Positions 20,673 to 57,681 of a stretch of DNA of 64,000 bases are shown here, one piece after another (positions within the stretch are counted from its first letter, which is position 1; each line of letters begins with the position of its first letter). This stretch comes from Hydrurus foetidus (lineage: Eukaryota): NCBI GenBank assembly GCA_900617105.1, contig UYFQ01000001.1:682001-746000 (forward strand), in the 5' to 3' direction. The notes under the pieces are model-generated. The model was given only the letters and a program-made list of their open reading frames with translations, ran no database searches and was not told where the DNA came from. Both the position numbers and the translations under genes were made by a program.

Positions 20673-20730
20673 TTGCTATATTTTTTATAGCTTATTACGC
20701 ATATCCTGCTAGGGTTAAAGTCCAAAATAA
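20673..20730 (+). repeat. GCTAY-N7-RTAGC palindromic repeat, intergenic copy
   Basis: GCTAT-atttttt-ATAGCT-tatt-ACGC... Confidence 0.7.
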
Positions 20731-20881
20731 CTTAAAAAAATAGTCCGGCAGCTGGAGCCAGTGCGGGTACGCCTGCGGGTTCTTGGTTTATCATTTAAGA
20801 GAAACTACTATTTATTAAAAACAGAAAATATTAATTTAATGTATAGTTAGAATTCTTATTCGCCGTAAAAGGAGTCTCCAG

Positions 20882-21247
20882 ATGGCAAACGCCGCGTCAT
20901 GGTTCATGTTTTTTCTGGGTATCGCCCACATCGTGTTTGGTTTGATGCGGTTCAACGGCCCGGTGGTGGATGCCGTTTTGGCGGGTTTTATTGGCCAGTT
21001 CGCCGAGCCGGAGGTGCGACGTACCGCCTTTTGGTTTCTGCTCTTGGGGCCCTTGTTAATGCTGGCCGGGCAGGTAGGTATACATGCCGTGGCTAAAGGC
21101 GACCTGGCGCTGCTCAAGATTCTGGGCATTTATATCTTTGCAACCGCTGTACTCGGGGTGGCGGCCTTCCCTCAATCACCGTTCTGGGCACCGCTTGTGG
21201 TTGCCCCCGTGTTGATCGCCGTGGGCTACGGACGGCTGCCACTATGA
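20882..21247 (+). CDS. Small membrane protein (DUF6463-like)
   Basis: 121 aa with about four hydrophobic segments, preceded by an AGGAG RBS. Confidence 0.7.
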   Translation: MANAASWFMFFLGIAHIVFGLMRFNGPVVDAVLAGFIGQFAEPEVRRTAFWFLLLGPLLMLAGQVGIHAVAKGDLALLKILGIYIFATAVLGVAAFPQSPFWAPLVVAPVLIAVGYGRLPL

Positions 21248-21639
21248 ACACGTGTTTTGTTGCTGCAGCCGCCATCGCTTTTGTCGTCGGGCTGGTGCAC
21301 TCCGTGCTGGGTGAAAAGCTGATCTTTCGCCGGCTGCGCGCGTGGGACGAACTTGTGCCTACCAACGGCGGCAACGTGCTGCGTGAGCACCACGTCCGCA
21401 TACTCTGGGCCAGTTGGCACCTTGTGACCGTTTTCGGTTGGTGCATGGGTGCCGTGCTGTTGCGCCTTTCATGGTCAGCGCTGCCGGATGCCTCGAGCGG
21501 GTTTGTGGCTCAGGCTTGCGCCGTTGCCACGCTGGCAGGGTCTGCGTGTGTGTTCATAGGCACGCAGGCCAAACACCCGGGCTGGATTGGCCTGCTGGCT
21601 ATCGCCCTGTGCGTGTGGCTCGGCGGCGCGTGGGCTTGA
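21244..21639 (+). CDS. Hypothetical membrane protein
   Basis: Hydrophobic 131-aa ORF with an ATGA overlap with the upstream gene. Confidence 0.7.
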   Translation: MNTCFVAAAAIAFVVGLVHSVLGEKLIFRRLRAWDELVPTNGGNVLREHHVRILWASWHLVTVFGWCMGAVLLRLSWSALPDASSGFVAQACAVATLAGSACVFIGTQAKHPGWIGLLAIALCVWLGGAWA

Positions 21640-21683
21640 GCCCGTGGCCAACATTTCGCTCTCTAACCCGTTCAAAGACTTCC

Positions 21684-24257: not shown

Positions 24258-24478
24258 GCGAGCTTGGTCGATGCCTCATCAGCCAACTGGCTTACGGCCA
24301 ATCCGGTGCACGGTGCAATGAAGCGGTGGGAGGCTTCAAGCTTAAAGCGTCGGCTTCGGCTCAAAATTGACCAGCGTGGTTGCAAAAAGCCTTGCATCAA
24401 CATGGTTTGATGAATGCTGCTAGATTGATGATGTGTCCTAGACATATTGGGTCCAGTCGATTTCCGCGAAGGGTTTGT

Positions 24479-32532: not shown

Positions 32533-34830
32533 TCAAATATCGCCTTGAAAATGCTGTCGGCACCTTTCAAGAAAGACTTCAAATCTCCCTTCAGCAGAGG
32601 ATAGACAATTATTAATAAAATGTAAGGGCAGGCCAAGCTTAAATCTTCGCTGAGTGTTGCCTCCGCGATTTTCAATTTCAATAATTACTTTAGTAGTTTG
32701 TAAAGTAGGTAGTTCATTGTCAATAAAACCTTGCCCCTTGTCACCAAGTCGTATTTTTATTATAGATTCACTTATGTGTGTGCTACGTGTAAAGTACCGT
32801 AGTAATTTTTGAAGATGCAAAACTTCTGGATCAATTCCAAACTCAGGAACATCATCGAATGATTTGATACTAATTTGGTTATCAAATGAAAATCCAAGTT
32901 TCTCTAAATTGGCCTTGATAGCAAATGGCTCCCAAATTTCATGACCAGATTCAGAGAATTTAAGTGAATCGACAGTGCATTCGTTCAATGTGACGTTTGA
33001 AAATATCGAATTTGGATATAACTGCATTTGTCCGAATTTGCATTGAGTGAATGTGCAGTTTTTCAGTGTCGTGGCCTCATACCGACCCAGGGAGAAGTAG
33101 CAATGATCAAATGAGATGTCCGTAAGTGAACAATCAAACAATGCATCAACACCAAAAGTTAGTCCTTCTACCTTTAAATCGGCATCGTCAATTCCATTCA
33201 ATAGGCGAATTACAAGATGTCCACAATTTTCTTGCGTGTAAGAGGCCTGCCCATCCAGTTCGCCGACACTCGCAACTAGCGCCGCTGCTTGCTTGCGCTC
33301 CATTGCAGAATTACGGTCAATTGCGCGAATAAATGAAAGTCTCGCATGATCTGGGAGGATGCTTCTACGAACCACGCTTAACAACTCTGACTTTGCGCTT
33401 CCATTGCTTGGCCGTAATATGTCTGCCAATCCCTCGCCGAGGAAAAACTGTCGAAACTCATCGTGATCAAATTCAACGGCTGATGGAGCGTCTCGAGAGG
33501 AAACCAATAAAGCATGACCGCGGATCCTCTCTCTAATCTGATGTGCCTGTAGAGATGGTTTTCTCTTCAATTCGCAAAAGTAATCTGCAACGACATCAAG
33601 ATGATCCAATTTAAGAAAACTAACTCTCGATTCCCACATATTTACAGCAATCATCGCTAGTAGTTCACAATGTTCTTCTGTAGATAAGAGCGATGTCGCG
33701 ACTTCACCTCCAGAGCGATCAATCCATTTCTCCTTGGCCTCCCGATCAATAATTCCGCGAACAAAAACAGAGAAAAAATCAGCACCTGAAATTTGAATCT
33801 GTTCTAAGAAATTTTCCAGTGAATCAGATGAATTGGCAATATCTATAAGTCGTCGCACCAAAACGGGACGAGTCAAAAGGGAGTGGTTTTCTCCGAGCCG
33901 ATCTTTGACGCTTGAGTATGTCTGATATGGATTTATAACTCCTCTAGCTGTGCAGTATTCTAGAAACTGTTTTTTCCCCCAGCGCCGGAGTTCTAATTTG
34001 GAAAATCCAACGGATTGGCTACTAATACTATCGTAAAGTTTTTCTTGAGATTTGAGGTTTTCAAATTCAAAATAAGCCTTTCTTGCCGCGACTACAAAAC
34101 ATCCTGCTGATTTGAGCGCATCAACTAGTATGCCCATGGCAGATAGGGCTTCTCCAGAGCTGTTCTCAACAAACATCTCTTCAAAGCCGTCGAAAGCCGG
34201 TATTATTACCCCCATTCGTACCAATGCAAGAAATGAGTTGTAGTATAAAAATGGAAATCTGTATTTGTTTTGCAATGCACCAACTGTAATGTCGTCAAAT
34301 CGCAAGAAATGTCTTCCACCTAAAACAATAGGAACTAGTAGCCAGTCAGATTTGCCATCGGAAAAATTTTTGGCTTGGGTTCGCGCAGCTGCATTGATTA
34401 ACCAAGTTTTACCTTCACCAGCGTCACTTGTAATATAGAGCACGGTAGTTTCCAAAGGGCTTTTTGATTCCAATGAATCTAATAAGGTGTGACGAGCATC
34501 GGAAACTTCGTATGCTTGACCATCTGGTTGCTTGTCAAGCGTTGGCAAGAGATTGGCAGATGGGGATATGAAATTGTGTTCTATCGGAATTTGTTCCGTA
34601 AGCCTAGCAGCCAATAGTGGCAAATTTGCAAGGCGATTTACTATCCAATGACTGGCCGAAATAGCTGTACTATTGTTCTCTGAGACATAAATATCTCCAG
34701 ATTTGGCGCTAATGGCTGCTTCAATTACATCGCCATTTATCGAAAAAACTAACCGTTGTTTTTCATATAAAAGTTCAGTGCCAGGATCGGAGAATGTGGA
34801 TACTATTGATTTAAACTGATCTATTTGCAT
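32533..34830 (-). CDS. NACHT/STAND-like P-loop NTPase with C-terminal pentapeptide-like repeats
   Basis: Walker A YITSDAGEGKT, Walker B IIPAFDGFEE, TRPVL, winged-helix-like EFDHDEFRQFF and 5-residue periodicity (LTDISFDHCYF...LKNCTFTQCKF). AT-rich. Confidence 0.8.
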   Translation of the reverse strand: MQIDQFKSIVSTFSDPGTELLYEKQRLVFSINGDVIEAAISAKSGDIYVSENNSTAISASHWIVNRLANLPLLAARLTEQIPIEHNFISPSANLLPTLDKQPDGQAYEVSDARHTLLDSLESKSPLETTVLYITSDAGEGKTWLINAAARTQAKNFSDGKSDWLLVPIVLGGRHFLRFDDITVGALQNKYRFPFLYYNSFLALVRMGVIIPAFDGFEEMFVENSSGEALSAMGILVDALKSAGCFVVAARKAYFEFENLKSQEKLYDSISSQSVGFSKLELRRWGKKQFLEYCTARGVINPYQTYSSVKDRLGENHSLLTRPVLVRRLIDIANSSDSLENFLEQIQISGADFFSVFVRGIIDREAKEKWIDRSGGEVATSLLSTEEHCELLAMIAVNMWESRVSFLKLDHLDVVADYFCELKRKPSLQAHQIRERIRGHALLVSSRDAPSAVEFDHDEFRQFFLGEGLADILRPSNGSAKSELLSVVRRSILPDHARLSFIRAIDRNSAMERKQAAALVASVGELDGQASYTQENCGHLVIRLLNGIDDADLKVEGLTFGVDALFDCSLTDISFDHCYFSLGRYEATTLKNCTFTQCKFGQMQLYPNSIFSNVTLNECTVDSLKFSESGHEIWEPFAIKANLEKLGFSFDNQISIKSFDDVPEFGIDPEVLHLQKLLRYFTRSTHISESIIKIRLGDKGQGFIDNELPTLQTTKVIIEIENRGGNTQRRFKLGLPLHFINNCLSSAEGRFEVFLERCRQHFQGDI

Positions 34831-36492: not shown

Positions 36493-37713
36493 CTAGCGCA
36501 ACGGGCTGCGCTGCGCCAAATCATCCAAATAGTGCGCGATTCCCTGGCCTTCGCGGTCTAAATAGTTTTGCACCGCATCCGCAAAAGCCGGGTGCGCCAG
36601 CCAATGCGCCGAGCTGGTTTTGACCGGCAGCAGCGCCCGCGCCATCTTGTGTTCCCCTTGGGCGCCCCCCTCAAACCGGGCGTAGCCGTTGGCGATGCAC
36701 CATTGCAGCGGCTGGTAATAGCAAGCCTCAAAGTGCAGGCAATCCACACGCTCCAGTGCGCCCCAGTAGCGGCCATAGGCTACTTTTTCATGGTGATTTT
36801 GGCCTTCTTCGCTTTCTGTATCTGCGTTGGTAGCTATCAAACTGGTAGCAATTGGCACCCCCTCGCGCTCAGCGGTGAACAGCAGCCAGCTTTGCGCCTG
36901 CGTGTCGGCCATGCGCTGGAAAAAATCGCGGCTCAGGTAGGGTGCGTTGCCGTGTTCCAGGTAGGTGCGCTCGTAGCAGTGGTAGAAAAAATCCCAGTCC
37001 GCTGTGCTGATGGCCGTGCCCTGCGCGTGGCGAAAGGTGACACCGGCATCGGCCACCTTGCGGCGCTCTTGGCGGATTTTCTTGCGCTTGTCGGGGGCGA
37101 GGTGGCTGAGGAAATCATCAAAATCCGCATATCCCGGTGATGTGTTCTGCCAATGAAACTGCACGGTGTGGCGCAGCATCAACCCGGCAGATTGACACGC
37201 CTGCAAATCCTCCTCCGCGCCAAACAGCACATGCAGTGACGACAAACCCTGCGATTCGCACCACTGCACCACCACCCGCACCAGCGTCTCACGGTTTGCT
37301 GCATCCCGCGCCAGCAGCCGCGCACCGGGCACGGGTGTGAAGGGTACGGCCAGCGTGGCTTTGGGGTAGTAGTCCAGCCCGTGCTGCGCGTAGGCGTTGG
37401 CCCAGGCGTGGTCAAACACGTATTCGCCGTAGGAATGCGGCTTGATGTAGACCATGCAGGCGGCGAGCAATTCGGTGCATTGCTCATCTTTCCATAGCGC
37501 GATACACCGTACTGACCAGCCGCTACGGGCAATCGCGCTGCCACTCTGGTGCAAGGCCGCGAGGTACTCGTAGCGCATGAACGGGGTAGGGTGGGGCTGG
37601 GCGGCGAGCAGGGCGTTCCACAGCGGGGCGGTGATTTTGGAATCAGGGGCGAACGGGGCGCTGAGGACTTGGGCGTGTAGAGCGGGCAAAGCGGGCGGGG
37701 CAGATGAGGTCAT
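36493..37713 (-). CDS. GNAT/FemAB-like protein (DUF482 family)
   Basis: Motifs HSYGEYVFDHAWA, PFTPVPG, YGRYWG, LHFEACYYQ and FEGGAQGEHK; start reassigned to MTSSAP. Confidence 0.9.
   Translation of the reverse strand: MTSSAPPALPALHAQVLSAPFAPDSKITAPLWNALLAAQPHPTPFMRYEYLAALHQSGSAIARSGWSVRCIALWKDEQCTELLAACMVYIKPHSYGEYVFDHAWANAYAQHGLDYYPKATLAVPFTPVPGARLLARDAANRETLVRVVVQWCESQGLSSLHVLFGAEEDLQACQSAGLMLRHTVQFHWQNTSPGYADFDDFLSHLAPDKRKKIRQERRKVADAGVTFRHAQGTAISTADWDFFYHCYERTYLEHGNAPYLSRDFFQRMADTQAQSWLLFTAEREGVPIATSLIATNADTESEEGQNHHEKVAYGRYWGALERVDCLHFEACYYQPLQWCIANGYARFEGGAQGEHKMARALLPVKTSSAHWLAHPAFADAVQNYLDREGQGIAHYLDDLAQRSPLR
36790..36851 (-). repeat. GCTAY-N7-RTAGC repeat, in frame within the GNAT gene
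   Basis: Minus strand GCTAC-cagtttg-ATAGCT-acca-ACGC-N9-AAGCG, encoding IATSLIATNADTESEEGQN. Confidence 0.75.
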
Positions 37714-37846: not shown

Positions 37847-39289
37847 ATGACCGATATAACCGCTCTCGATGCCGACGCACTGTCTCGTGCCATCCACGCC
37901 CGCCACGTCTCTTGCCGCGAGGTGATGCAGGCGTACCTCACGCGCATCCACCGTCTGAACCCGCAGTTCAATGCTATCGTTAACATAGCTTCTAACACTG
38001 ATCTGCTAAGCGTATCCGATGCTTTGGATGCTGAATTGGCCCGTGGCGAGTCACGCGGCTGGCTGCATGGCATTCCCCAGGCGATCAAAGACACGGGCCA
38101 CGCCATCGGCTTCCCCACCACCTACGGTTGCAGCCTGCTGAAAGGGGCCGTCGCCACCCAAGACAGCGTGATGACGGCGCGGATGAAGGCCGCAGGGGCC
38201 ATCGTCATCGGCAAAACCAACATGCCTGAGTTCGGCCTGGGTTCGCACACCTTCAATGACCTGTTCGGCACCACGCCCAACGCCTGGGACGCTACCGTCA
38301 GCGCGGGCGGGTCGAGCGGCGGTGCAGCCGTCGCTCTGGCGCAGCACCTGTTGCCCGTGGCCGATGGTTCTGATTTCATGGGCTCGCTGCGTAACCCGGC
38401 GGGGTGGAACAACATCTTTGGCATGCGCCCCTCCCAAGGCCGCGTGCCGTTTTGGCCCGCCGCCGACACCTGGGTCAGCCAGTTGGGCACCGAAGGGCCG
38501 ATGGGGCGCACGGTGCGGGATGTGGCCAAGCTGCTGGCCGTGCAATCAGGCCACTACCCGCAGGTGCCGCTGTCGATCAACACCCCACTGTCACCGTTTA
38601 CGGAGGAGGGCGACACCCGCGCCCTGCAAGGTCTTCGCGTCGGTTGGCTGGGCGATTTGAACGGTTATCTGGCGATGGAAGACGGCCTGCTGCCCGTTTG
38701 CGAGCAAGCCCTGCAACGCTTCACCGATGCCGGTGCCCATGTCGAGGCCTGCGGTTTAGGCTTTGACACCGCCGCGCTGTGGACGGCGTGGCTTGCATGG
38801 CGGCGTGCCCTGGTCGGCCCCAAAGTCGCTGCACTTTTGAAGCTGCCCGGTGCCCGCGAACGCATCAAACCCGAAGCCCTGTGGGAACACGACCAAGCCC
38901 AGGGTCTCTCGTTCATGGATTTCATGCAAGCCAGCGAGGTGCGTACCGCCTTTCACACCCACATGCTGGGTCTGCTCAAGCGCTACGACGTGCTGGCCCT
39001 GCCCAGTGCGCAAGTCTGGCCCTTCCCTGTAGAGGAGCGCTGGCCCCAAAGCATCGCAGGCCGCGCAATGGACACCTACCACCGCTGGATGGAAGTCACC
39101 CTCTACGCCACCTTCGCCGGCCTGCCCGCCATCAGCCTGCCCGCAGGCTTCCACCCCAATGGCCGCTGGCCTGCGGGGCTGCAACTGATAGGCGGTGCGC
39201 AGGGGGATGCCGCCTTGCTGCGCGTGGCGGCGGGGTATGAGGCGACGGTGGGGGCGCTGCTGGCGCGGCGGCCAGCGGAGGTTGGTTAG
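37847..39289 (+). CDS. Amidase-signature family amidase
   Basis: Motifs LHGIPQAIKD, GKTNMPEF, GGSSGG and GSDFMGSLRNPA; start reassigned to MTDITALD. Confidence 0.93.
   Translation: MTDITALDADALSRAIHARHVSCREVMQAYLTRIHRLNPQFNAIVNIASNTDLLSVSDALDAELARGESRGWLHGIPQAIKDTGHAIGFPTTYGCSLLKGAVATQDSVMTARMKAAGAIVIGKTNMPEFGLGSHTFNDLFGTTPNAWDATVSAGGSSGGAAVALAQHLLPVADGSDFMGSLRNPAGWNNIFGMRPSQGRVPFWPAADTWVSQLGTEGPMGRTVRDVAKLLAVQSGHYPQVPLSINTPLSPFTEEGDTRALQGLRVGWLGDLNGYLAMEDGLLPVCEQALQRFTDAGAHVEACGLGFDTAALWTAWLAWRRALVGPKVAALLKLPGARERIKPEALWEHDQAQGLSFMDFMQASEVRTAFHTHMLGLLKRYDVLALPSAQVWPFPVEERWPQSIAGRAMDTYHRWMEVTLYATFAGLPAISLPAGFHPNGRWPAGLQLIGGAQGDAALLRVAAGYEATVGALLARRPAEVG
37971..38025 (+). repeat. GCTAY-N7-RTAGC repeat, in frame within the amidase gene
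   Basis: GCTAT-cgttaac-ATAGCT-tcta-ACAC-N9-AAGCG, encoding NAIVNIASNTDLLS. Confidence 0.7.
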
Positions 39290-42151: not shown

Positions 42152-42158
42152 AGGGGAA

Positions 42159-42215
42159 TTGCTGTAATTTTGATAGCTAATAATGCTTTATTTGTGGGCT
42201 GTAATCAGCTTATTT
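42159..42215 (+). repeat. GCTAY-N7-RTAGC repeat, intergenic copy upstream of serB
   Basis: GCTGT-aattttg-ATAGCT-aata-ATGC... Confidence 0.6.
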
Positions 42216-42264
42216 CATGTCAATAATCAACTGCGCCAGCCGTCCTGTGGATGCCAACGCGTAT

Positions 42265-42696
42265 TTACACCAGCGGATTCACGGTGGCCAAGGCTTTGTA
42301 GCGGCTGAAGTCGCGGTCTGCACTCCACAGCACGGAAACGCCGTTTTCCAGGCAAATAGCGGCAATGCGGGCATCGTGGAATTGACCCCCTTGGAGCTTG
42401 GCTTGTTGGGTTAGCTCTGACAGCACCCGCCAGTGCTGGGGGCCGCTGTGCAAGATGTGCATTCTGGGGGCTTCAAGCCATGCGTCGATTTGCGCCAGCG
42501 CTTGGGTATAGCTGCTGGCGGGGCTGAAAATTTTGGGGTTGGTCACCACGGCCAAGAACTCATGCAGGCAACTGACGGGGATTCCCCAGTGCTGGCGACC
42601 TTCTGCCAGGGCGGTGACGCAGGCATAGGCTGCTGCGTGGAAGGTAGATTCTGCGCGGTGGGCATAAACCAGCACGTTGGTGTCAACGGCAATCAT
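42265..42696 (-). CDS. vapC: VapC-family PIN toxin (module 1)
   Basis: MIAVDTNVLVYA, EFLAVVT, HDARIAA and SADRDF; start reassigned. Confidence 0.9.
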   Translation of the reverse strand: MIAVDTNVLVYAHRAESTFHAAAYACVTALAEGRQHWGIPVSCLHEFLAVVTNPKIFSPASSYTQALAQIDAWLEAPRMHILHSGPQHWRVLSELTQQAKLQGGQFHDARIAAICLENGVSVLWSADRDFSRYKALATVNPLV

Positions 42697-42980
42697 TCTG
42701 GGGCTGCGCTGCTGCGGGTGGGGCTGGGGGGGACTGCCCATGCTGCGGCTACATGGGCTTCTTCCATTTCGCGCCATTGCCTGGGGTCTGCCACCAAGGT
42801 GGCGCCGCCGTGTACCCGTGCATCTTTGAGCTTGAAGCTGGGTTCGGGCTGGGTTTGTGCTTCGTGAAGTACCCGGCGCAGCCCTTCTTCAATCAAGGCT
42901 CGCAAGCTGGTGTGGCTGCTGCGGGCCAGTTCTTTGGCCGATTCAAACAGGGCATCGGACAGGTCAATGGTGGTTTTCAT
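42693..42980 (-). CDS. vapB: RHH-type VapB antitoxin (module 1)
   Basis: MKTTIDLSDALFESAKELA...SLRALIEEGLRRVL; overlaps the toxin start. Confidence 0.85.
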   Translation of the reverse strand: MKTTIDLSDALFESAKELARSSHTSLRALIEEGLRRVLHEAQTQPEPSFKLKDARVHGGATLVADPRQWREMEEAHVAAAWAVPPSPTRSSAAPE

Positions 42981-42985
42981 ATGGG

Positions 42986-43009
42986 CACCCGTATTTTTAA
43001 ATATGGGTG
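42986..43009. promoter_or_regulatory. Inverted repeat, probable antitoxin operator (module 1)
   Basis: CACCCGTATTT-TT-AAATATGGGTG (11-bp arms, 1 mismatch) directly upstream of the antitoxin start. Confidence 0.55.
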
Positions 43010-43022
43010 TATTTTAGGCGAT

Positions 43023-43475
43023 TTATTCGCGCAGCCAGTTTTCCACCCGCAAGCCGGGCACGCGCTTGAATTCGGTGTCGTTGTCGGTCACGAGCGTGCA
43101 GTCCAGTGCCAGGGCGTGGGCGGCGATTAAGGTGTCGTTGGGGCCTATAGGGGTGCCTTGACACTCTAGGTGGGTGCGGATGGTGGCGTAGTGTGCAATG
43201 AGGCTGGCATCCATCGGCATGGGGCGAATGAACTTCAGCATGGTGGCAATTTTGAGTGCAAGTTGTTCCGCCCCGGCTTTGGTGGCACCAAAGATCAATT
43301 CGCATTGCACGATCAGACTGGTACATAGGCTTTGCGGGTCTGCCAAATCCATCCTTTGCAGGCGCAATGCCAAGCTGCCATGAGGGTTGCGGATGGCGTG
43401 CGAAATGATGTTGGTATCGAGCATCCAACGGTTTTCAGCCGCTGAAGTCGCGGCTGTTGTTGGCGTTTTTCTCAT
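43023..43475 (-). CDS. vapC: VapC-family PIN toxin (module 2)
   Basis: MLDTNII, IGPNDTLIAAHA and LVTDNDTEFKRVPGLRVENW. Confidence 0.92.
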   Translation of the reverse strand: MRKTPTTAATSAAENRWMLDTNIISHAIRNPHGSLALRLQRMDLADPQSLCTSLIVQCELIFGATKAGAEQLALKIATMLKFIRPMPMDASLIAHYATIRTHLECQGTPIGPNDTLIAAHALALDCTLVTDNDTEFKRVPGLRVENWLRE

Positions 43476-43765
43476 AGAACAATATCGTCCAAGGGCAGTA
43501 AACCCTCGTCAACATCGGGGAACGGCTCTTCAATCGGTTCCCAATCTTTCATGGCTTCAAGCAGAGTGGCAAGACCGGGGCGGGCCGGTTCAATAATCAG
43601 TTTGTTGCCAACCCGTGTCATCGTGGCATCTTGGGTGGGGAATTCAAATTCACGCGGGATGCGCAGGGCTTGGTTGGCCCCGTTGCGGAACAGGCGGATG
43701 TTGCGCGTGGCGGAAACATCGGCGGTGGGGTCTGTGCGCCGTTGGGGCTGGGTTTGGGCTTGCAT
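43472..43765 (-). CDS. vapB: AbrB-type VapB/VagC antitoxin (module 2)
   Basis: RLFRNGANQALRIPREFEF and an acidic C-terminus; ATGA overlap with the toxin. Confidence 0.9.
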   Translation of the reverse strand: MQAQTQPQRRTDPTADVSATRNIRLFRNGANQALRIPREFEFPTQDATMTRVGNKLIIEPARPGLATLLEAMKDWEPIEEPFPDVDEGLLPLDDIVL

Positions 43766-43804
43766 GGCGGGTCTCCTGAAGCGGCTGAGGCTTTCAGTTT
43801 AGCC

Positions 43805-43822
43805 TATGCCTTGGCATATGCC
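43805..43822. promoter_or_regulatory. Overlapping palindromes, probable antitoxin operator (module 2)
   Basis: TATGCC-TT-GGCATA overlapping GGCATATGCC, about 40 bp upstream of the antitoxin start. Confidence 0.5.
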
Positions 43823-43857
43823 TAATGTGCCTGTGCAGCTCAAATGGCGGGAGGGGT

Positions 43858-44259
43858 TCACGCCTCGTACCAGTTTTCCAGCCGCAAGCCGGGCACGCGC
43901 TCGAACTCTCGGGTGTTGCGGGTGACGAGAGTCAGGTTATTGGCCAGTGCAATGCCTGCAATCAGCAGATCGTAGGGGCCAATGACACAGCCGCTTTTTT
44001 CCAGCGTGGCCCGCAGTTGGCCTGCTGCTGCTGCACTGTTCGCATCCAAGGGTAAAAAATGGTAGCGGACTAAAGCGGCATCCAAAAACAAGCGCAATGG
44101 CTTGGGGTGGGTTGATTTGGCGATGCCGCGTTCTATTTCCGTCACGTTGAGGGCACACAGGCAGAGGGCTTCAGCGCTGTGGCTGTGTATTTTGCTGCGG
44201 CACGCCCCTTGGTTTTTATAGGCGTAGATCAGGATGTTGGTGTCGAGCAGGTAGCGCAT
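43858..44259 (-). CDS. vapC: VapC-family PIN toxin (module 3)
   Basis: MRYLLDTNILIY, IGPYDLLIAGIA and LVTRNTREFERVPGLRLENW. Confidence 0.92.
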   Translation of the reverse strand: MRYLLDTNILIYAYKNQGACRSKIHSHSAEALCLCALNVTEIERGIAKSTHPKPLRLFLDAALVRYHFLPLDANSAAAAGQLRATLEKSGCVIGPYDLLIAGIALANNLTLVTRNTREFERVPGLRLENWYEA

Positions 44260-44274
44260 CAGGTGGGTTCCTGC

Positions 44275-44544
44275 TTATTCCCAAGACTCAATGGGGGTGT
44301 CAGTACCTAAGTCCGCATACCGAAGTTGGGGGTTGAGCAAGAAATCCAGTGCCTCGTCGTCGTTGGATTCGAGGCGCAGGCGGTCAATTTCAGCCCACAG
44401 ACCTTGCCAATCGTTTTGCTGCGCCGTTTTTGCAGCCTCAGCAAACTGGGCAAACCATTTGCTCACGGACAGTTTTGCCTTGGCCGCCGCTTCTTTGGCA
44501 GCGGCCAAGGTGTCGTCTTCCAGGTAGATGGTGACTTGGGTCAT
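44275..44544 (-). CDS. RHH/CopG-like antitoxin (module 3)
   Basis: MTQVTIYLEDDTLAAAKEAAAKAKLSVSKW with an acidic tail, directly upstream of a VapC. Confidence 0.8.
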   Translation of the reverse strand: MTQVTIYLEDDTLAAAKEAAAKAKLSVSKWFAQFAEAAKTAQQNDWQGLWAEIDRLRLESNDDEALDFLLNPQLRYADLGTDTPIESWE

Positions 44545-44707
44545 GGCCGTACTCCTTAAAATTACATGGGCAATTATATAAGTGTGCTGCACTTGCAGGC
44601 CGTAGTCACACTGACCCCATTGCTTTGATGGGATCCATAAATCGCTATTCTTCGTTGGCACTGCACGGGCCGCCGGTGCCCGCATGCCCTAAAAGGAGAT
44701 TTTCCTC

Positions 44708-45142: not shown

Positions 45143-45209
45143 CTGTCGTTAGCTGTTGATAGCCGTCGATAGTGGCAGGCGCGCCCCTTGCTGCGCTCTT
45201 CAGGTTTCC

Positions 45210-48200
45210 TTACGGTTGCAGCTCTTCGGTCTTGGGCTGCCCCAAGCTCTTGAGCACATCGCGCACCTGCTGCGCCCGGTCTTTCGGGTCGGGTACTTCG
45301 CGTTCAATCCGCAGTTTTTCGTTGCCTGACAAGCGGATGTGCTTGTTCTTTTGGATCAGCTGGATGATTTTCAGCGTCTCCACGGGCGGGTTGGGGCGGA
45401 AGGTGATGGTGGTGACACCGGGGGCGGCATCGACTTTCACCACGCCGTAGGGCTTGGCGATGACGCGCAGGCGGTGGACGTCGATCAGCGTTTGCGCTTG
45501 GGGCGGGAGTTTGCCGAAGCGGTCTACGATTTCTTCGAGCAGGTCGTCGATCTTGTCGGGGGTCTTGGCGGTGGCGAGTTTTTTGTAGAACGACAAGCGC
45601 AAATGCACGTCGCCGCAGTAGTCGTTGGGCAGCAAGGCGGGGGCGTGCAGGTTGATGTCGGTGGTGATGCCCAAAGGCTTGAGCAAATCGGGTTCTTTGC
45701 CGGCCTTCAAGCTGCGCACGGCTTCGCCCAGCATTTCGTTATAGAGCTGAAAGCCGATTTCCAGCATGTTGCCGCTTTGGTTTTCACCCAGCACTTCACC
45801 TGCACCGCGAATTTCCAGGTCGTGCATGGCGAGGTAAAAGCCGCTGCCGAGTTCTTCCATTTGCTGGATGGCATCCAGGCGTTGCTGCGCGTGCTTGGTC
45901 AGGCCTTCGATGTCGGGCACCATCAAGTATGCATAGGCTTGGTGGTGGCTTCGACCTACGCGGCCTCGGAGTTGGTGCAGTTGGGCCAAGCCGAATTTGT
46001 CAGCGCGGCTCATTACGATGGTGTTGGCGGTGGGCACGTCGATACCGGTTTCGATGATGGTGGAGCACAGCAGCAGGTTGTAGCGCTGGGCCACAAAGTC
46101 GCGCATCACGGCCTCTAGCTGGCGCTCGGGCATTTGGCCGTGTGCGATGGCGATGCGGGCTTCAGGCAGCAACTCTTCGAGCTTTTGGCGGCGGTTTTCA
46201 ATCGTTTCGACTTCGTTGTGCAAGAAGTACACCTGCCCGCCACGCTTCAACTCACGCAACACGGCTTCACGGATCACGCCGTTGCTCTCAGAGCGAACAA
46301 AGGTTTTGATAGCAAGTCGGCGTTGGGGGGCGGTGGCGATCACACTCAAATCCCGTAGCCCCTCCAGCGCCATGCCCAGGGTGCGGGGGATGGGGGTGGC
46401 GGTGAGCGTCAGCACGTCCACCTCGGCCCGCAGCGATTTCATCTGCTCTTTGTGGCGCACGCCGAAGCGGTGTTCCTCGTCGATGATGAGCAGGCCTAAG
46501 TCTTTGAATTTGGTCGATTCGCTCAAGAGTTTATGGGTTCCCACCACGATATCTACACCACCTTCAGCTATGCCTTTGATAGCGGATGTGATTTCTTTGC
46601 CGCTGCGAAAGCGCGAGACTTCAGCCACTTTGACGGGCCATTTGGCGAAGCGGTCTACCAGGGTTTGGTAATGCTGTTCGGCCAATAGCGTAGTGGGCGC
46701 GAGGAAGGCGACTTGCTTGCCGCCGGTGATGGCGATGAAGGCGGCACGCAGGGCGACTTCGGTTTTTCCGAAACCCACGTCGCCACAGATCAACCTGTCC
46801 ATAGGCCGGGGCGAAATCATGTCTTGGATGACGGCGTGGATGGCGGCTTTTTGGTCTGGAGTTTCGTCAAAACCGAAATCGTTGGCGAAGGTTTCGTAGT
46901 CGTTCGCGCTGTAACGGAAGGCGTGGCCTTCGCGGGCGGCCCGGCGGGCGTAGATGTTGAGCAGCTCTGCCGCGCTGTCACGCACCTGCTCGGCGGCTTT
47001 GCGCTTGGCTTTTTCCCACTGGCCAGAGCCTAGGCGGTGCAGCGGTGCTTCGTCTGCGCTGACACCGGTGTAGCGGCTGATGTGGTGGAGCTGGCTGACG
47101 GGCACGTACAGCGTGGCTTTGTCTGCATATTCGAGGTGGAGGAATTCTTGCTCTTGCGGGCTGCCGTCCGCGTTCTGGCCCATCCCCAGATCGAGGTTGA
47201 CCAAGCCCCGGTAGCGGCCAATGCCGTGGGCGTTGTGGACGACCGGGTCGCCGATGTTCAGCTCAGCCAAGTCCTTGATGAGGGCGTTAACGTCGCTGAC
47301 TTGCTCTTGTTTTTTACGGCGGCGGGTGGTGGGGCCAGCGGCGAAGAGTTCCGTCTCCGTCACGAAGTCCAAGCCTTCGTTAAGCCAACTGAAGCCCACG
47401 GTGAGGGCAGCGGTAGCGATGCCGACTTTCTCGTCACTCTTTTGGAAGTCAGCCAGCGAGTCGAACGCCGGGGGGCTGAGCTTGCTGGCACGCAAGAAGT
47501 CAAGCAGGCTTTCACGCCGCCCGTCGCTTTCGGCCAGCAGCAGCACGCGGTGGGGGGTGTTGCGGATGTGGGATTGCAGGCGGGCGAGGGGTTCTTCGGC
47601 ACCTCGGACGACGGAAAGGGCGGGGATGCTTGTGAAATCAGCGTTACCAGCTATGTCTTCGATAGCATCATGACCTGGTGCATGGCGTGGTTTGATCGCC
47701 AGTTGCGCGTAATCATTGCAGCGCGTGTAGAACTGCTCGGTGCTCAAAAACAGCGATTCCGGGGGCAGTGCGGGGCGCTCGGGGTCGTCTTTGACGAGGC
47801 GGTAGCGGTCTTTGGTGTCTTGCCAAAAGCGCTGGAAGGCGGGTTCCAGATCACCATGCAGCACGACAGTGGCGTTCGCGCCCAGGTAATCGAACACGGT
47901 GGCCGTTTGCTCAAAAAACAGCGGCAGGTAGTACTCGATACCCGCCGTGGCAACCCCGGCACCGATGTCTTTGTAGATGCGGCTCTTGGTCGGGTCGCCT
48001 TCCATCAGCTCACGCCAACGTCCCCGGAAACGGGCACGGGCCTCGTCGTCCATCGGGAATTCACGCCCTGGCAGCAAGCGCACTTCGGGCACGGGGTAGA
48101 GGCTGCGTTGGCTGTCGGGGTCAAAGGTGCGGATGCTGTCGATTTCGTCGTCGAACAAATCGACCCGGTAGGGCACCAGGCTGCCCATGGGGAAGAGGTC

Positions 48201-48718
48201 AATCAAGCCGCCACGCACCGCGTATTCACCGGGGCTGACGACTTGGGTCACATGGCTGTAGCCGGCCAGCGTCAGCTGTGCTTTGAGTTTGGCTTCGTCC
48301 AGCTTTTGTTTGACCTTGAATTCAAAGGTGTAGCCCGGCCAGAAAGCTGGGCGGCGCCAAGCGGTACAGCGCGGTGGTGGCGGGCACGATGACCACATCG
48401 GCGTCGTTGTCTTTGTTCCGCTGCTGTGATGCGCCACAGCGTGGCCAAGCGCTCGCTGATCAGGTCCTGGTGCGGCGAAAACGTGTCGTAAGGCAGGGTT
48501 TCCCAGTCGGGGAACAGGGCGGTACGCACCTCGGGGGCGAAGAAGGCCATTTCTTCCATCAGGCGCAGCGCATCGGTGGCGTCGGACGTGATGATGGCGG
48601 TGATTTTTTTGGCTGATTTTTCGCGCTGGGCAAGCTGGGCCAGCAGCAAGGAATCCGCTGAGCCTGGGGGGCGGGGCAGGGTAAAGCGTTTGCCGGGGGG
48701 GAGTTTGGGGAGGTCCAT
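45210..48718 (-). CDS. mfd: Transcription-repair coupling factor, with two apparent single-base insertions near the 5' end
   Basis: GDVGFGKTEVA, IIDEEHRFG and QLRGRVGR. The N-terminus MDLPKL...DWETLPYD is in another frame; removing one base at about 48427 and one at about 48335 restores a continuous frame. Confidence 0.93.
46565..46585 (-). repeat. GCTAY-N7-RTAGC core in mfd
   Basis: GCTAT-caaaggc-ATAGCT, encoding SAIKGIA. Confidence 0.55.
47615..47668 (-). repeat. GCTAY-N7-RTAGC repeat, in frame within mfd
   Basis: GCTAT-cgaagac-ATAGCT-ggta-ACGC-N9-AAGCA, encoding DAIEDIAGNADFTS. Confidence 0.72.
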
Positions 48719-48780
48719 GCAGCAGGGGGGTAGAGCCGGTGTCAGCGTCGGGCGCATCAAGGCGAAATAGCCATAACAAA

Positions 48781-50553: not shown

Positions 50554-50560
50554 GTTCCCT

Positions 50561-51343
50561 GTGCAGCTCCCCGTACAGCCTGCCACGCCCTCTGCGCCAC
50601 CGCGCTACTTTGCGCTCATTCCCTGCGGCGGCACGGGCAGCCGTGCAGGTGCGGGTTTGCCCAAGCAGTACCGGGTGATTGCCGGGCAGCCGCTGCTGGC
50701 CCACACCTTGGCGGCGTTTGCGGCCGTTCCTGAGCTGGCTGCGGTGCTGGTGGGAGTGTCGCCGCAAGACAGTGCCATCGCCCAGGCTGAGCTGGCTTGT
50801 GCAGCGGCCAGGGCATTGTCAAAATCATCTTTAGAAACTCCTTTTTTGATAGCTGCTAACGCCGGTGAGACGCGTTCAGCCACCGTGTTCAATGGTTTGT
50901 CTGCGCTGCTGACCCAACACGGTGCGCTGTCCACGGATTGGGTGCTGGTGCATGACGCAGCCCGCTGCCTCATCACCCCCGACCAGATCAACACCCTGGT
51001 GCGGGCCTGTACGGACGATGCCGTGGGTGGCCTGCTGGCACAGCCCTTGGCGGACACGCTGAAGCAGTCTGTACAGGGCAGGGTGGCAGCCACGGTAGAG
51101 CGAAGCGATAAATGGCTGGCGCAAACGCCACAGATGTTCCGCATTGGGGCCTTGCAGGCGGCTTTGCGGCACGCGCAGGCCGCTGATGTGGTTGTGACCG
51201 ATGAAGCCAGCGCGATGGAGGCGATGGGCTTGCAGCCGCTGCTGGTTGCAGGCAGTGCGCAAAACTTCAAGGTGACGTACCCCGAAGACTTTGCGCTGGC
51301 TGAGGCTTGTCTGCGGAGCAGAATGGAATCAAGAGCGCCATGA
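50561..51343 (+). CDS. ispD: 2-C-methyl-D-erythritol 4-phosphate cytidylyltransferase
   Basis: [23 protein letters not shown] and NFKVTYPED. Confidence 0.95.
50835..50885 (+). repeat. Degenerate GCTAY-N7-RTAGC repeat, in frame within ispD
   Basis: ACTCC-ttttttg-ATAGCT-gcta-ACGC, encoding [10 protein letters not shown]. Confidence 0.55.
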
Positions 51344-51846
51344 CCACGTCTTTCAACCCAATCAACCTGCTTAACCTGCGTATTGGCGAAGGCTGGGATG
51401 TTCATGCGCTGGTGCCGGGCCGCAAACTCATCATCGGTGGAACCGAGATCCCGCACAGCATGGGCCTGCTGGGCCACTCAGACGCCGATGTGCTGCTGCA
51501 CGCGATCACCGATGCGGTGCTGGGCGCAGCGGGCTTGGGCGACATTGGCACGCATTTTCCAGATACCGATGTGCGCTTTGCCGGTGCGAATTCGTCGGTA
51601 CTGCTGGCCGAGGCCATGCGCCGAGTGCGGGCAAAGGGCTTCACGCTGTGCAATGTGGACTGCACGGTGATTGCCCAAGCGCCGAAACTCGCCACGCACA
51701 TCCCGCTGATGTGTGAGTGCATCGCGCTGGCGTTGGATGTAGCCCCCACGCAGGTGAATGTGAAGGCCAAGACGGCTGAGAAGTTGGGGCCGGTGGGGCA
51801 GGGCTTGAGCATTGAGGCTCGTGCGGTAGTGCTTCTCTTTTTATAG
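51340..51846 (+). CDS. ispF: 2-C-methyl-D-erythritol 2,4-cyclodiphosphate synthase
   Basis: [31 protein letters not shown] and VNVKAKTAE. Confidence 0.96.
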
Positions 51847-51872
51847 CTACTGACGCATATCTGGATAGCAGA
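51829..51872 (+). repeat. GCTAY-N7-RTAGC repeat overlapping the ispF stop codon
   Basis: GCTTC-tcttttt-ATAGCT-actg-ACGC-N9-TAGCA; its TAG at 51844-51846 is the ispF stop. Confidence 0.7.
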
Positions 51873-51873
51873 A

Positions 51874-51892
51874 ATGGACTGTTTCAGTCCAT
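51874..51892. terminator. Hairpin between convergent ispF and kinase genes
   Basis: Perfect 8-bp stem ATGGACTG-ttt-CAGTCCAT. Confidence 0.5.
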
Positions 51893-51907
51893 GTGGGCAG
51901 GCCTGTA

Positions 51908-54056: not shown

Positions 54057-54273
54057 CAGGTGCTTATGTTTAAGTTCATGAATGACAGTTTGCCATGGAC
54101 AAAACGACATTCGGAAAGCCTTTATTGTCCACTACCCCATTGGACTGGCTTGGGCTCGTTACAAATGTTTCAAACTGGCTTGGGGCTTACCTTGCGTTTA
54201 CCTCGGATTTACCAAGGCTCAGTCGCCAATTTACCGCCTTTGCCGTTAAATGCAGACGTATTGGAGAAACAGA

Positions 54274-55674
54274 ATGAGAAATTCAGCAAAACCAGTCTTA
54301 TTAACGCCTTCCGATGTGCGTCACTTGCTGGTACGCACCGGCTTTGCTCCCACGCAAGCAGAAGTTGACCGCTGGACGGGGCAATCTGCCGACACCGCTG
54401 TTAACGTACTGCTGGCCGAGGCCCAAGCGGCACGCACACTGAACCCACCGCCGCAGTTCGTCAGTGCGCCGCCCCCTGTCCCGCTGGGCCCCCTCAAATC
54501 TCGTGAAGAGCAGCAGGCTGCCCGTCAGCAGCAGTTGCGCGAAGGTTTGGACATGAAGGTGTGGTGGCTGCGCGAGATGGTGGAAACCCGCACGCCGCTG
54601 GCCGAGCGCATGGTGCTGTTTTGGCATAACCATTTCGCCACCTCGCAACAAAAAGTCATCCGCTCGCAGGCCATGTGGCAGCAGCAGCAGGTGTTACGGG
54701 CCAACGTGCTGGGGAACTTCAGCACCCTGCTGCATACGGTGGCCAAAACCCCTGCCATGTTGGTGTATCTGGATGGTGCCAACAGCCGCAAAGAGGCTCC
54801 GAACGAGAACTTTGCCCGTGAGGTGATGGAGCTGTTTGTGCTGGGTGAAGCGAGCCAAACCGCTGCGGGCTTGGGCGGCTACACCGAGCAAGACATCAAA
54901 GAGGCAGCGAGGGCTTTCACCGGCTGGAGCGTGGAGCGCGACGATTTCAGCTTCAAATTTCGCCCGTCTTTCCATGACAACGGCAGCAAGACTTTGCTAG
55001 GCGTAACGGGCAACCTGGACGGCGACCAAGCGCTGGACGTGATGCTGACCCAACCGGCAGTCGCTCGCTTTGTCGTAGGCAAACTGTGGCGTGAGTTTGT
55101 GTCACCTGGGGTTGCCTCAGCTACAGATTTTGTAGCTTCTCAAGCAGACATGACAAGCGCCGCCGATGTTTTTCGCCGCAGTGGTTATGACATCAGCGCG
55201 GCCATGCGCAGCTTGCTGCTCTGCGACAGTTTTTGGGCTGCTGATAACCGGGGCAGTCTCATCAAATCGCCAGTGGACTTGGTGGTAGGCACAGTGCGGC
55301 AGTTTGGCTTCACTGCCACCGATATGACACCACTGGTGCTTAAATCCGCCCAGTTGGGTCAAAACCTGCTGGTGCCGCCCAATGTGAAAGGTTGGCCTGG
55401 CTACACCGACTGGATCAACGCCACGACGTTATTGGAGCGCAAACGCTTCACCGAGCAGTTGTTTCGCATGGGGCCGTTGAAGGCAGACTTTGACCCTGAC
55501 CGTTGGCTGGCCACCTACAGCGGCCATGCAGACCGCGAGCCTTCAGAGGTCTTAAAAAATCAATTAGAGCAGGTATTGCTTGCAGTGCCAGCTACACATT
55601 CCATAGCGCAAGGCTCCGTAGGCATCGCCTACCTTCGCACGCTGACGCTAGACCCGGCTTACCAGCTCAAGTGA
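54274..55674 (+). CDS. DUF1800-family protein
   Basis: ERMVLFWHNHFATS, PAMLVYLD, PNENFARE and PPNVKGW. Confidence 0.9.
   Translation: MRNSAKPVLLTPSDVRHLLVRTGFAPTQAEVDRWTGQSADTAVNVLLAEAQAARTLNPPPQFVSAPPPVPLGPLKSREEQQAARQQQLREGLDMKVWWLREMVETRTPLAERMVLFWHNHFATSQQKVIRSQAMWQQQQVLRANVLGNFSTLLHTVAKTPAMLVYLDGANSRKEAPNENFAREVMELFVLGEASQTAAGLGGYTEQDIKEAARAFTGWSVERDDFSFKFRPSFHDNGSKTLLGVTGNLDGDQALDVMLTQPAVARFVVGKLWREFVSPGVASATDFVASQADMTSAADVFRRSGYDISAAMRSLLLCDSFWAADNRGSLIKSPVDLVVGTVRQFGFTATDMTPLVLKSAQLGQNLLVPPNVKGWPGYTDWINATTLLERKRFTEQLFRMGPLKADFDPDRWLATYSGHADREPSEVLKNQLEQVLLAVPATHSIAQGSVGIAYLRTLTLDPAYQLK
55118..55175 (+). repeat. GCTAY-N7-RTAGC repeat, in frame within DUF1800
   Basis: GCTAC-agatttt-GTAGCT-tctc-AAGC-N9-AAGCG, encoding SATDFVASQADMTS. 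Confidence 0.7.
55590..55608 (+). repeat. GCTAY-N7-RTAGC core near the DUF1800 C-terminus
   Basis: GCTAC-acattcc-ATAGC, encoding PATHSIA. Confidence 0.55.
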
Positions 55675-55708
55675 ATGCCTCTCAGCGCAAAACCCTTAAG
55701 GTCTCACC

Positions 55709-56932
55709 ATGAACGCTTACCTGAACCGCCGACAGTTGTTAACCCATTCAGTCCGTTTTTTGGGCGCAACCACTGGGGTTGCGCTGCTGAGCGCCCACGC
55801 ACCGGGCTGGGCACAAAGTCTCACCCAGCGTGCCAGCAGTGCCGCTGACCGCATCTTGGTGTTGATTGAGCTTAAAGGCGGTAACGATGGCCTGAACACC
55901 GTTGTGCCTTACGCCAATCCACAGTACGCCGCGATGCGTCCCAGTCTTGCCCTCAAGACCGATGAGCTGCTCAAAATTGACAGCCGTGTTGGCCTGCACC
56001 CTGAGCTTAAAGCGCTGCTGCCCTTGTGGGAGAAAAACGAACTTGCGGTGGTGCAGGGCGTGGGCTACCCCCAACCCAACCTGTCGCACTTCCGGTCTAT
56101 CGAGATTTGGGAGAGTGCGTCCAAATCCAATGAAACTTTGGACGATGGCTGGGTTGCGCGGGCAATGAAGTCCGGGTACGGCAGCACCCCGTTCACCGCC
56201 GAGGGCGTGCTGATCGGCATGAACGATTTTGGCCCCCTGGCCGGTGCACGTGCAGTGTCGCTGAACAACCCTGAAGCTTTCGTCAACCAAGCCCGTTTCG
56301 CCAGCACCATGCCGACCACGGGCAACGCGGCGTTGCGCCACTTGCTGCAAGTCGAAAACAACATCACCCAAGCAGCTGCGGGCTTGCGCGGCGAGAAATT
56401 CAATTTCGTGACCCCCTTTCCTCAAGGTGCTTTCGGTAACAGCGTGCGCGCTGCCGCCCAAGTCGTTGCCAGCCAGCGTGCCAGTGTGGGCACAGGGCAG
56501 GGCGGTGTGCCTGTCATCACCCTCAGTTTGGGCAGTTTTGACACCCACCAAAACCAGCTGGGCACCCACGCCAACCTGATGCGCCAGTTGGGCGAGGGTA
56601 TGGCTGCGCTCAAGGGGGCGCTGACCGAGTTGAACGCCTGGGACCGTACGGTGGTGATGACCTACAGCGAGTTCGGTCGCCGGGTACGGCAAAACAACTC
56701 GAACGGTACCGACCACGGCACCAGTGCACCGCACTTTGTCGCCGGTGGTGCCGTGCGCGGTGGCCTGTACGGTCAGGAGCCTGATTTCAACCGGCTGGAT
56801 GCGGCACAAAACCTGTTCTACACCACCGATTTTCGCCAGCTTTATGCCACGGTAGCGCAAGATTGGTGGGGTGTGAAGCCTGAGCTGGTGGTGCGTGGGC
56901 GGTTTGAGCCGGTCAACTTTTTGCGCATGTGA
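55709..56932 (+). CDS. DUF1501-family Tat-exported protein
   Basis: LNRRQLL leader, GGNDGLN, SHFRS, FDTH, SEFGR and GTDHG. Confidence 0.9.
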   Translation: MNAYLNRRQLLTHSVRFLGATTGVALLSAHAPGWAQSLTQRASSAADRILVLIELKGGNDGLNTVVPYANPQYAAMRPSLALKTDELLKIDSRVGLHPELKALLPLWEKNELAVVQGVGYPQPNLSHFRSIEIWESASKSNETLDDGWVARAMKSGYGSTPFTAEGVLIGMNDFGPLAGARAVSLNNPEAFVNQARFASTMPTTGNAALRHLLQVENNITQAAAGLRGEKFNFVTPFPQGAFGNSVRAAAQVVASQRASVGTGQGGVPVITLSLGSFDTHQNQLGTHANLMRQLGEGMAALKGALTELNAWDRTVVMTYSEFGRRVRQNNSNGTDHGTSAPHFVAGGAVRGGLYGQEPDFNRLDAAQNLFYTTDFRQLYATVAQDWWGVKPELVVRGRFEPVNFLRM

Positions 56933-56979
56933 GGCGTTTTCAGTGCTGTCACTCCCTTCATTTTCAAACCCTCATACCC

Positions 56980-57681
56980 ATGAATACTACAAAAATCATA
57001 GCTGCTATAGCCCTTCTCGTAAGCACAAGCGGCGTATTCGCTCAAAACAATGCACCCTCACTAAACGTGGTGCAACTGTCTGCCAATGCCGCGATAGAGG
57101 TGCAGCAAGACACCCTCAGCATCAGCCTGAACACCACCAAAGACGGCGCAGATGCCGGTACAGTGCAAACCCAACTCAAAACGGCCTTGGATGCGGCTTT
57201 GACCGAGGCCAAAAAATCCGCCTTGCCCGGCCAGATGGACGTGCGCACAGGCAACTTCAGCCTCTATCCGCGCTACAGCAATGGCGGTAAATTGAACGGC
57301 TGGCAGGGCACAGCTGAGCTGGTGCTGGAGGGCAAAGACTTTGCCCGTATCAGCAGCACGGCGGGCAAGATCCAGACGCTGACGATGGGCAACGTCAGCT
57401 TTTCGCTTAGCCGTGAGCAGCGCGAAAAGGCCGAGGCGCAAGTGCAAGCTTTGGCTATCGAGCGCTTCAAGACCAAAGCTGGTGAAGTCGCCAAGAGCTT
57501 TGGCTTTGGTGGCTATAGCTTGCGCGAGGTGTCGGTGAACGCGGGTGACCAGGGTTTCGCACCCCGTCCGCGCATGATGGCGATGGCGGCGAAATCGATG
57601 TCCTCTGACGAAGCCGTGCCGGTAGAAGCGGGCAAGAGTTCGGTGGTGGTGACGGTGAGCGGGGCGGTTCAGCTCAAGTGA
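56980..57681 (+). CDS. SIMPL (DUF541) periplasmic protein
   Basis: Signal peptide, a SIMPL-like body and C-terminal VEAGKSSVVVTVSGAVQLK. Confidence 0.85.
   Translation: MNTTKIIAAIALLVSTSGVFAQNNAPSLNVVQLSANAAIEVQQDTLSISLNTTKDGADAGTVQTQLKTALDAALTEAKKSALPGQMDVRTGNFSLYPRYSNGGKLNGWQGTAELVLEGKDFARISSTAGKIQTLTMGNVSFSLSREQREKAEAQVQALAIERFKTKAGEVAKSFGFGGYSLREVSVNAGDQGFAPRPRMMAMAAKSMSSDEAVPVEAGKSSVVVTVSGAVQLK
56984..57040 (+). repeat. GCTAY-N7-RTAGC repeat encoding the SIMPL signal peptide
   Basis: ACTAC-aaaaatc-ATAGCT-gcta-TAGC-N9-AAGCA, encoding NTTKIIAAIALLVSTSGVFA. Confidence 0.65.

Follow-up and report, generated by a model that had tools for sequence, protein, structure and literature searches.

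The 64,000-nt stretch analyzed here, hereafter the window (positions 682,001 to 746,000 of contig UYFQ01000001.1, assembly GCA_900617105.1, filed under Hydrurus foetidus), carries 11 copies of a spaced dyad, GCTAY-N7-RTAGC, which forms the head of a longer DNA element shared with Comamonadaceae genomes. The element is a real, family-wide, predicted recognition site that evolves in place and resembles either an uptake signal or the HIP1 palindrome of cyanobacteria. A first-pass annotation of the same DNA had listed 11 copies with a fixed 7-nt spacer, and this observation was confirmed: seven cores were exact, three (42161, 51831, and 56986) had one mismatch and one (50837) had two. Shuffling the window 100 times gave a mean of 0.06 exact dyads and a maximum of 1, and when spacers of 3-13 nt were scanned, exact dyads occurred at spacer 7 only. 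A weight matrix trained solely on a relative, G002, and then run on the window recovered 10 of the 11 sites, with scores of 17.6-49.8 bits, and gave no match in the reversed window; the site that it missed, 46567, consists of a core only. At 36833, 47650, and 55591 the conserved tail that follows the dyad lay on the minus strand, so the element is oriented. As the annotation had also claimed, none of the 11 sites fell within the accessory blocks (31.3 kb; P = 6e-4, with block boundaries taken post hoc from that annotation), where a single sub-threshold match of 14.6 bits was seen at 34640.

Pfam profiles and translations placed eight copies inside the genes to which they had been assigned, namely GNAT (PF04339), amidase, mfd (two copies), ispD (the gene at 50833..50901, which we take to be ispD from its sequence and neighbors), DUF1800 (two copies), and SIMPL. 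All eight were read in the frame that gives Ala-x-x-x-Ile/Val-Ala. What had been described as a single fixed frame held for these window genes but was only a preference in G002, where 38 of 50 in-gene sites used it and 3 and 9 used the other two. Avoidance of the TAG stop, offered as a reason for the frame, explained one rare frame and not the other; TAG or its complement was altered in the nine G002 sites of one minor frame. The core TAG seldom served as a stop codon in the relatives (1 of 32 and 0 of 40 sites outside coding sequences). Among 38 peptides of the form A-[IT]-x-x-[IV]-A, both rare codons of the motif were present in 14, vs. 0.39 expected, an excess that was not found at other spacings.

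All genome-wide figures come from relatives found via DUF1800. Mfd of G002 and G001 is 98 and 97% identical to that of the window, respectively, and G003 is Polaromonas sp. P2-4. Exact cores numbered 222 in G001, 285 in G002, 561 in G003, 10 in Ramlibacter, and 5 in Ralstonia; across 401 family genomes, 114 had at least 40 (range 40-732), 7 had 21-39, and 280 had 20 or fewer. Named motif-rich records were Polaromonas and Comamonadaceae metagenome-assembled genomes, and motif-poor ones were Ramlibacter, Caenimonas, Rhizobacter, Ralstonia, Pandoraea, and Herminiimonas. In an Mfd tree of 29 rows with weak backbone support, the Ramlibacter/Caenimonas clade fell among the rich lineages. Richness was not set by G+C content, since a locus of 70% G+C belonged to a genome with 455 cores and one of 54% to a genome with 10. 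Four plasmids of Polaromonas and Rhodoferax held 7 cores in 1.31 Mb, vs. 561 in the 5.98-Mb chromosome of G003, a strain other than the plasmid hosts; a BLAST search of plasmids with one element copy returned chance matches only, and no site was found on the plasmid of Verminephrobacter eiseniae. The extended pattern was carried by ~260 viral contigs, most of them once. On two single-contig chromosomes, sites lay all the way round in mixed orientations (103 forward and 84 reverse among the matches listed for one; 26 and 19, all listed, for the other), and neither replichore polarity nor restriction to the origin or terminus was seen on them. Element density was ~1 per 4.7 kb, and when G003 was sampled at even intervals in 20 pieces of 20 kb, 19 of them had at least one site. 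Pairs closer than 500 bp were depleted in G002 (1 vs. 8.0 expected) and also in G003. The homologous positions of motif-poor genomes had no DNA-level remnant of the element, and no replacement dyad was found in 200 kb of each of two such genomes. A second abundant spaced dyad, CCCC-N3/4-GGGG, was noted in G003 and is possibly a true repetitive extragenic palindromic (REP) family.

To the in-gene sites we applied the gap test used for the uptake signal sequences of the Pasteurellaceae (USS; PMC1626085). Five of the eight in-gene window sites (mfd 46567, amidase, the IspD tail, DUF1800 55591, and SIMPL) aligned with their orthologs without an indel. At mfd 46567 gaps were present in none of 29 rows. 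The window, G001, and G002 share the exact core, as does G162, which sits on a separate branch, while three other motif-rich genomes encode the identical hexapeptide with ordinary codons. Judged from these aligned codons, the core was formed through synonymous changes only; its spacer is non-consensus. DUF1800 55591 lacked an indel as far as Rhizobacter and Ralstonia, with the exact core in 14 of 17 rich orthologs, and two poor genomes shared the peptide pattern without the core. In amidase, full elements of 38-46 bits lay over a helix of constant length, and the IspD tail and the SIMPL N-terminus were gap-free across the element, the IspD loop just upstream being longer. REP-like or Rickettsia palindromic element (RPE)-like insertion into proteins, one of two explanations proposed by the annotation, therefore fails at these five sites, and hairpin signal was absent; it could still apply to the three sites that lie in lengthened loops.

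From 133 site-to-ortholog alignments at all loci, we tested the 47 distinct rows that used the preferred frame, had no gaps, and reached an overall identity of 53% or more. In 39 of these 47 rows, which represent only ~10 positions, include antisense duplicates, and may contain some comparators that are secondarily motif-poor, identity to the motif-poor ortholog exceeded that of all 72 translated intergenic copies. Because ancestral residues thus appear to survive inside the elements, it is unlikely that these positions were overwritten wholesale by a copy. Patchwise conversion at these positions is possible, although the non-consensus spacer in mfd speaks otherwise.

Once formed, sites were retained. 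Motif codons were kept in G001 at 12 of 14 positions vs. 36 of 125 other GCT/ATA/GTA codons (P = 5e-5), and in G002 at 12 of 12 vs. 53 of 135, in a test that counts two non-independent codons per site. The GNAT site occupied the same alignment column in 14 of 17 rich genomes and in none of 12 poor ones. Moreover, the tail comes in dialects: when the G002 and G003 groups, the two that were compared, were split by leave-one-out classification, 93 and 91% of sites were assigned correctly, and 9 of 10 window sites were of the G002 dialect. The orthologous GNAT copy was of G002 type in the window, G001, and G002 and of G003 type in G003 and 6 of 7 others; an old site thus tracks the current consensus of its host. 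The annotation's second explanation, a genome-wide site kept under selection even inside genes, was borne out by the in-place origin, the conserved silent positions, and the core-genome bias, so that its interpretation as a whole was partly supported. Some force acting on duplex DNA probably builds and keeps these sites, and the element is, with good confidence, a predicted site for a protein that binds duplex DNA.

The full element is oriented and ~65-69 bp long. In 77 exact-core sites a short lead of A/T preceded the dyad, which was followed by a T and then by a one-sided tail of 45-48 bp; in the tail, GC was conserved at positions 25-26 and 38-41, and A/T tracts occupied 51-54 and 62-64. 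The A/T content of the tail had a period of 10.5 bp (81 sites in G002, permutation P = 0.014; 55 sites in G003, P = 0.047), and the tail-proximal arm of the dyad was the better conserved (31 vs. 65 mismatches). A scan of 396 kb of G002 with its matrix found 82 sites, 50 of them inside genes called by a simple in-house gene finder, of which 27 were sense and 23 antisense to transcription. Between genes, G002 and G003 together had 25 sites in 13.4 kb of convergent regions vs. 7 in 28.0 kb of divergent ones. No convincing covariation was found among 15 position pairs of either dyad (lowest P = 0.03); as single-stranded DNA, seven of eight copies folded no better than shuffles, the eighth owing its fold to a separate hairpin in the tail; Rfam gave no match; and scans for promoters and terminators gave chance levels. 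Hairpin models for the element were rejected on the missing covariation and stable fold. The two closest copies were 71% identical in G002 and 78% in G003, and young, near-identical copies were not found. With no covariation, no stable fold, and no strand bias relative to transcription, the anatomy points to duplex DNA rather than RNA.

By analogy with the uptake signal of the Pasteurellaceae, the reading that we put forward, while judging it somewhat short of probable, is that the element resembles an uptake signal and serves as a "self" tag propagated by biased transformation. In the proposed mechanism, a protein would read the dyad and bend or wrap the phased tail, and fragments with a better match would enter the cell and recombine at higher frequency. 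Point mutation would then gradually bring in better-matching alleles at places where the protein can accommodate them, as in loops, signal peptides, Ala/Ile/Val-rich helices, and terminator regions, and tail dialects would follow the drift of the receptor. Biased uptake with recombination would account in one step for the in-place origin, the recoding of proteins, the dialects, the core-genome bias, the lack of polarity, the spacing of sites, and the layout of a core plus phased tail. Within the family, V. eiseniae takes up DNA selectively by no signal known to the source cited, and two Acidovorax species are transformable (PMC4212676). In comEC the element was found at three conserved positions, with 28 sites in 52 kb from 20 rich genomes and none in 10 poor ones.

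A number of observations weigh against an uptake signal. The other three in-gene window sites lie in longer loops (DUF1800 55120, by eight residues; mfd 47650; and the GNAT tail), and the comEC excess amounts to three ancestral positions in a membrane protein rich in Ala, Ile, and Val. The element has a dyad core, unlike known uptake sequences, which are described as not being palindromes (PMC1939737) and in which perfect copies far outnumber singly mismatched ones (PMC1626085); here the ratio of perfect to one-mismatch cores was 33:33 in G002 and 33:19 in G003. The competence proteins profiled did not separate rich from poor genomes: ComEC (PF03772 profile) was present in 30 of 30 rich and 29 of 30 poor genomes, ComP-family pilins (PF16732 profile) in 27 of 30 and 28 of 30, respectively, and ComEA-family matches in five of five genomes, rich and poor alike. 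Minor-pilin loci were not enriched, with 8 sites in 51 kb. The DNA uptake sequences (DUS) of the Neisseriaceae and USS occur at a density of roughly 1 per kb, and the element is sparser. Lastly, the depletion of close pairs was not seen in the lists of sites from G423 and G162.

The close rival of an uptake signal is an intracellular site at which a dimeric or tetrameric protein (a nucleoid organizer, a LysR-like protein, or a topology factor) would grip the dyad and bend the phased tail, with ordinary selection keeping the sites; this we hold to be quite possible, while leaning against it. The relaxed consensus is typical of intracellular binding sites, the enrichment in convergent regions is in keeping with one, and the in-place origin and conservation fit such a site equally well. 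There is a precedent in HIP1, a palindrome conserved both inside and between open reading frames (ORFs) for which ordinary selection has been argued (PMC5861425). The T-N11-A spacing of the dyad is that of the general LysR box, and like the element, LysR-type operators have this odd dyad followed by a weaker second one (PMC6449761); unlike them as there described, the element has hundreds of copies, lies mostly away from promoters, and is depleted in divergent regions. Convergent enrichment has, however, also been reported for uptake sequences, in terminators, and apparently nested lineages have lost the element wholly without a replacement dyad. Sites of the SlmA, MatP, ParB, or KOPS type are restricted to a region of the chromosome or show replichore polarity, features that were absent here. 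Nor was a candidate protein found: the NdpA family was present in none of five genomes, and the H-NS family in all five, rich and poor alike. None of the profiled proteins (Y1_Tnp, ComEC, the ComP family, NdpA, the ComEA family, and H-NS) was a cognate that separated rich from poor genomes.

An improbable explanation is an old REP- or RPE-like repeat whose spread was due to a transposase, either the conserved TIRYT (HUH) nuclease, present in single copy, or some other; it would have entered loops by insertion and replaced coding DNA by gene conversion. The annotation had suggested a search for a linked RAYT/TnpA gene; a single-copy Y1 nuclease with repeats of its own was present in rich and poor genomes, with a partial element alongside in most rich loci. 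Immediately next to the downstream terminal repeat of TIRYT, an element without its left arm was seen in 8 of 11 rich loci listed and in none of 6 poor ones, with a match at the same distance in G002; moreover, several sites of relatives, like three in the window, lie in loops 5-26 residues longer, and the score distribution includes few weak sites. However, the Y1 gene was found in 29 of 30 rich and 24 of 30 poor genomes, TIRYT has its own GGGGWSAS-type repeats, which alone supply the A/T spacer, and the copies adjoining it are as diverged as any other. The pairwise identities of at most 0.71-0.78, the lack of covariation and of folding beyond shuffles, the purely synonymous origin of the mfd core with its non-consensus spacer, and the ancestral residues retained elsewhere likewise argue against a spreading repeat. 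The element beside TIRYT could represent a single ancestral site that formed on the A/T tract of the repeat, or it may give a clue to a source copy. As an observation in its own right, a TIRYT-type Y1 nuclease with conserved terminal repeats is single-copy and syntenic in nearly all family genomes tested and is apparently domesticated. Finally, an RNA-level element (a terminator or a hairpin that confers stability) or a side effect of codon usage and protein sequence is very improbable and largely refuted: the dyad could pair, convergent regions are enriched, and a reading frame is preferred, but covariation, a stable fold, an Rfam match, and strand bias to transcription were all lacking, and both the excess of rare codons and the independence of richness from G+C content oppose a codon by-product.

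Every named family that we tested has a defining feature that is missing from the element, which is therefore set apart as a variant, not a member. Like USS and DUS (PMC1626085, PMC3630211, PMC1939737, bioRxiv 2025.10.24.684340), it arises without insertion inside genes, shows lineage dialects, core-genome bias, and frame bias, has a third to two thirds of its copies in ORFs, and accumulates in permissive regions and terminators; like USS, it joins a core to helically spaced A/T segments on one side (PMC1626085). It departs from both in its dyad core, lower density, and relaxed consensus. Over-representation on the chromosome with scarcity in mobile DNA, lineage dialects, and, at the five gap-free sites of eight (the other three being in lengthened loops), origin by point mutation were all found, and a short non-palindromic core with mostly perfect copies, which again tells against an uptake signal, was not. 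An extended USS is about 30 bp, and the element is about twice as long. HIP1 is likewise palindromic, hyper-abundant, and conserved within and between ORFs, with a function described as unproven and a proposed role in chromosome structure (PMC5861425). The conservation of the element in ORFs goes beyond protein constraint in the same way, but HIP1 is a contiguous 8-mer and the element a spaced dyad with an oriented tail of 45-48 bp and host dialects. With REP sequences and bacterial interspersed mosaic elements (BIMEs) linked to RAYT, and TIRtrons linked to TIRYT (PMC3733652, PMC6006769), it shares hundreds of dispersed chromosomal copies, a bias to convergent regions, some intragenic copies, and, in most rich loci, a Y1 nuclease gene with a partial copy alongside; unlike them, it has no hairpin, GTAG/CGTC tag, dimers or clusters, or young identical copies, and mostly does not represent insertions. 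Neither a covarying hairpin with a GTAG/CGTC tag nor near-identical copies, dimers, or clusters, as in REP or REPIN, were found, nor was an in-frame insertion of element length, as in RPEs or miniature inverted-repeat transposable elements, the loops at the three exceptional sites being variable or eight residues longer. Rickettsia palindromic elements share dispersed, partly intragenic copies. Two repeats are reported from Comamonadaceae: the Betaproteobacterial repeat element BRE (PMC3110155), which at ~90 bp, 69% G+C, and 1-29 tandem copies is unlike the element, and VeiPR1 (PMC3975124), reported as unique to V. eiseniae. The motif words were not found in four supplements of a survey of GTAG/CGTC repeats, and no description of the element was found in the literature, which does not establish its absence from print.

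Table 1. Copies of the element in the window, with scores from the G002 matrix.
Feature	Position	Strand	Remarks
Full element, intergenic	20671..20739	+	Exact core 20675-20691; 49.8 bits
Full element in GNAT/FemAB-like gene (PF04339)	36785..36853	-	Core over conserved strand, tail in lengthened loop; 46.1 bits
Full element in amidase	37969..38037	+	Over helix, no indel; 37.8 bits
Full element, intergenic	42157..42225	+	9 bp upstream of start of serB-like HAD gene; core with one mismatch; 34.5 bits
Core only, Mfd helicase domain	46567..46583	.	29 aligned rows without indel; synonymous codons
Element in length-variable Mfd loop	47602..47670	-	24.1 bits
Element in ispD (presumed)	50833..50901	+	Left arm with two mismatches; tail covers a conserved stretch free of gaps; 25.0 bits
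Element with TAG serving as stop codon of ispF-position ORF 51340-51846	51827..51895	+	Tail in convergent intergenic region with separate hairpin; 37.1 bits
Element in DUF1800	55116..55184	+	At 8-residue insertion vs. most orthologs; 31.9 bits
Element close to DUF1800 C-terminus	55543..55611	-	No indel; exact core in 14/17 motif-rich orthologs; 17.6 bits
Full element over signal-peptide-like N-terminus of SIMPL (DUF541)	56982..57050	+	47.9 bits

Several other features of the window were noted. The best named matches of its GNAT protein were from Rhodoferax. Relative to the G002 protein, mfd is interrupted by two frame changes at 48277-48721 on the minus strand (intact ORF, 45210-48398), which are probably sequencing indels. 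Three PIN-domain (VapBC-like) modules occupy positions 42265-44685 between the serB-like gene and mfd, two genes that lie ~240 bp apart in G002. A 1570-bp repeat, 100% identical at 2464-4033 and 7247-8816 within two neighboring hybrid histidine-kinase genes, can be read as a recent duplication, a conversion, or an assembly artifact. Two divergent phospholipase-D-family genes of similar size lie at 16835-20424, and at 61035-64000 a tRNA-Val precedes a block of lower G+C content that encodes a CHAT-domain protein (61307-63946), likely marking an island edge.

For the Comamonadaceae, the motif marks native vs. recently acquired DNA. If a cytoplasmic protein binds the element, it would reveal an unrecognized chromosome-wide system of several hundred sites. 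If it is an uptake signal, it would add a third family to the two described in the cited literature, in common freshwater and soil bacteria. It may then be, as we suggest with real reserve, the third family-wide uptake-signal system and the first to combine a dyad core with a wrapped footprint of 65 bp, whose predicted receptor of drifting specificity would have rewritten hundreds of Comamonadaceae proteins, and it may be the signal missing in Verminephrobacter. Such a system would allow a test of whether biased uptake is a general force in reshaping genomes and proteins, and it would offer a handle for transforming these strains.

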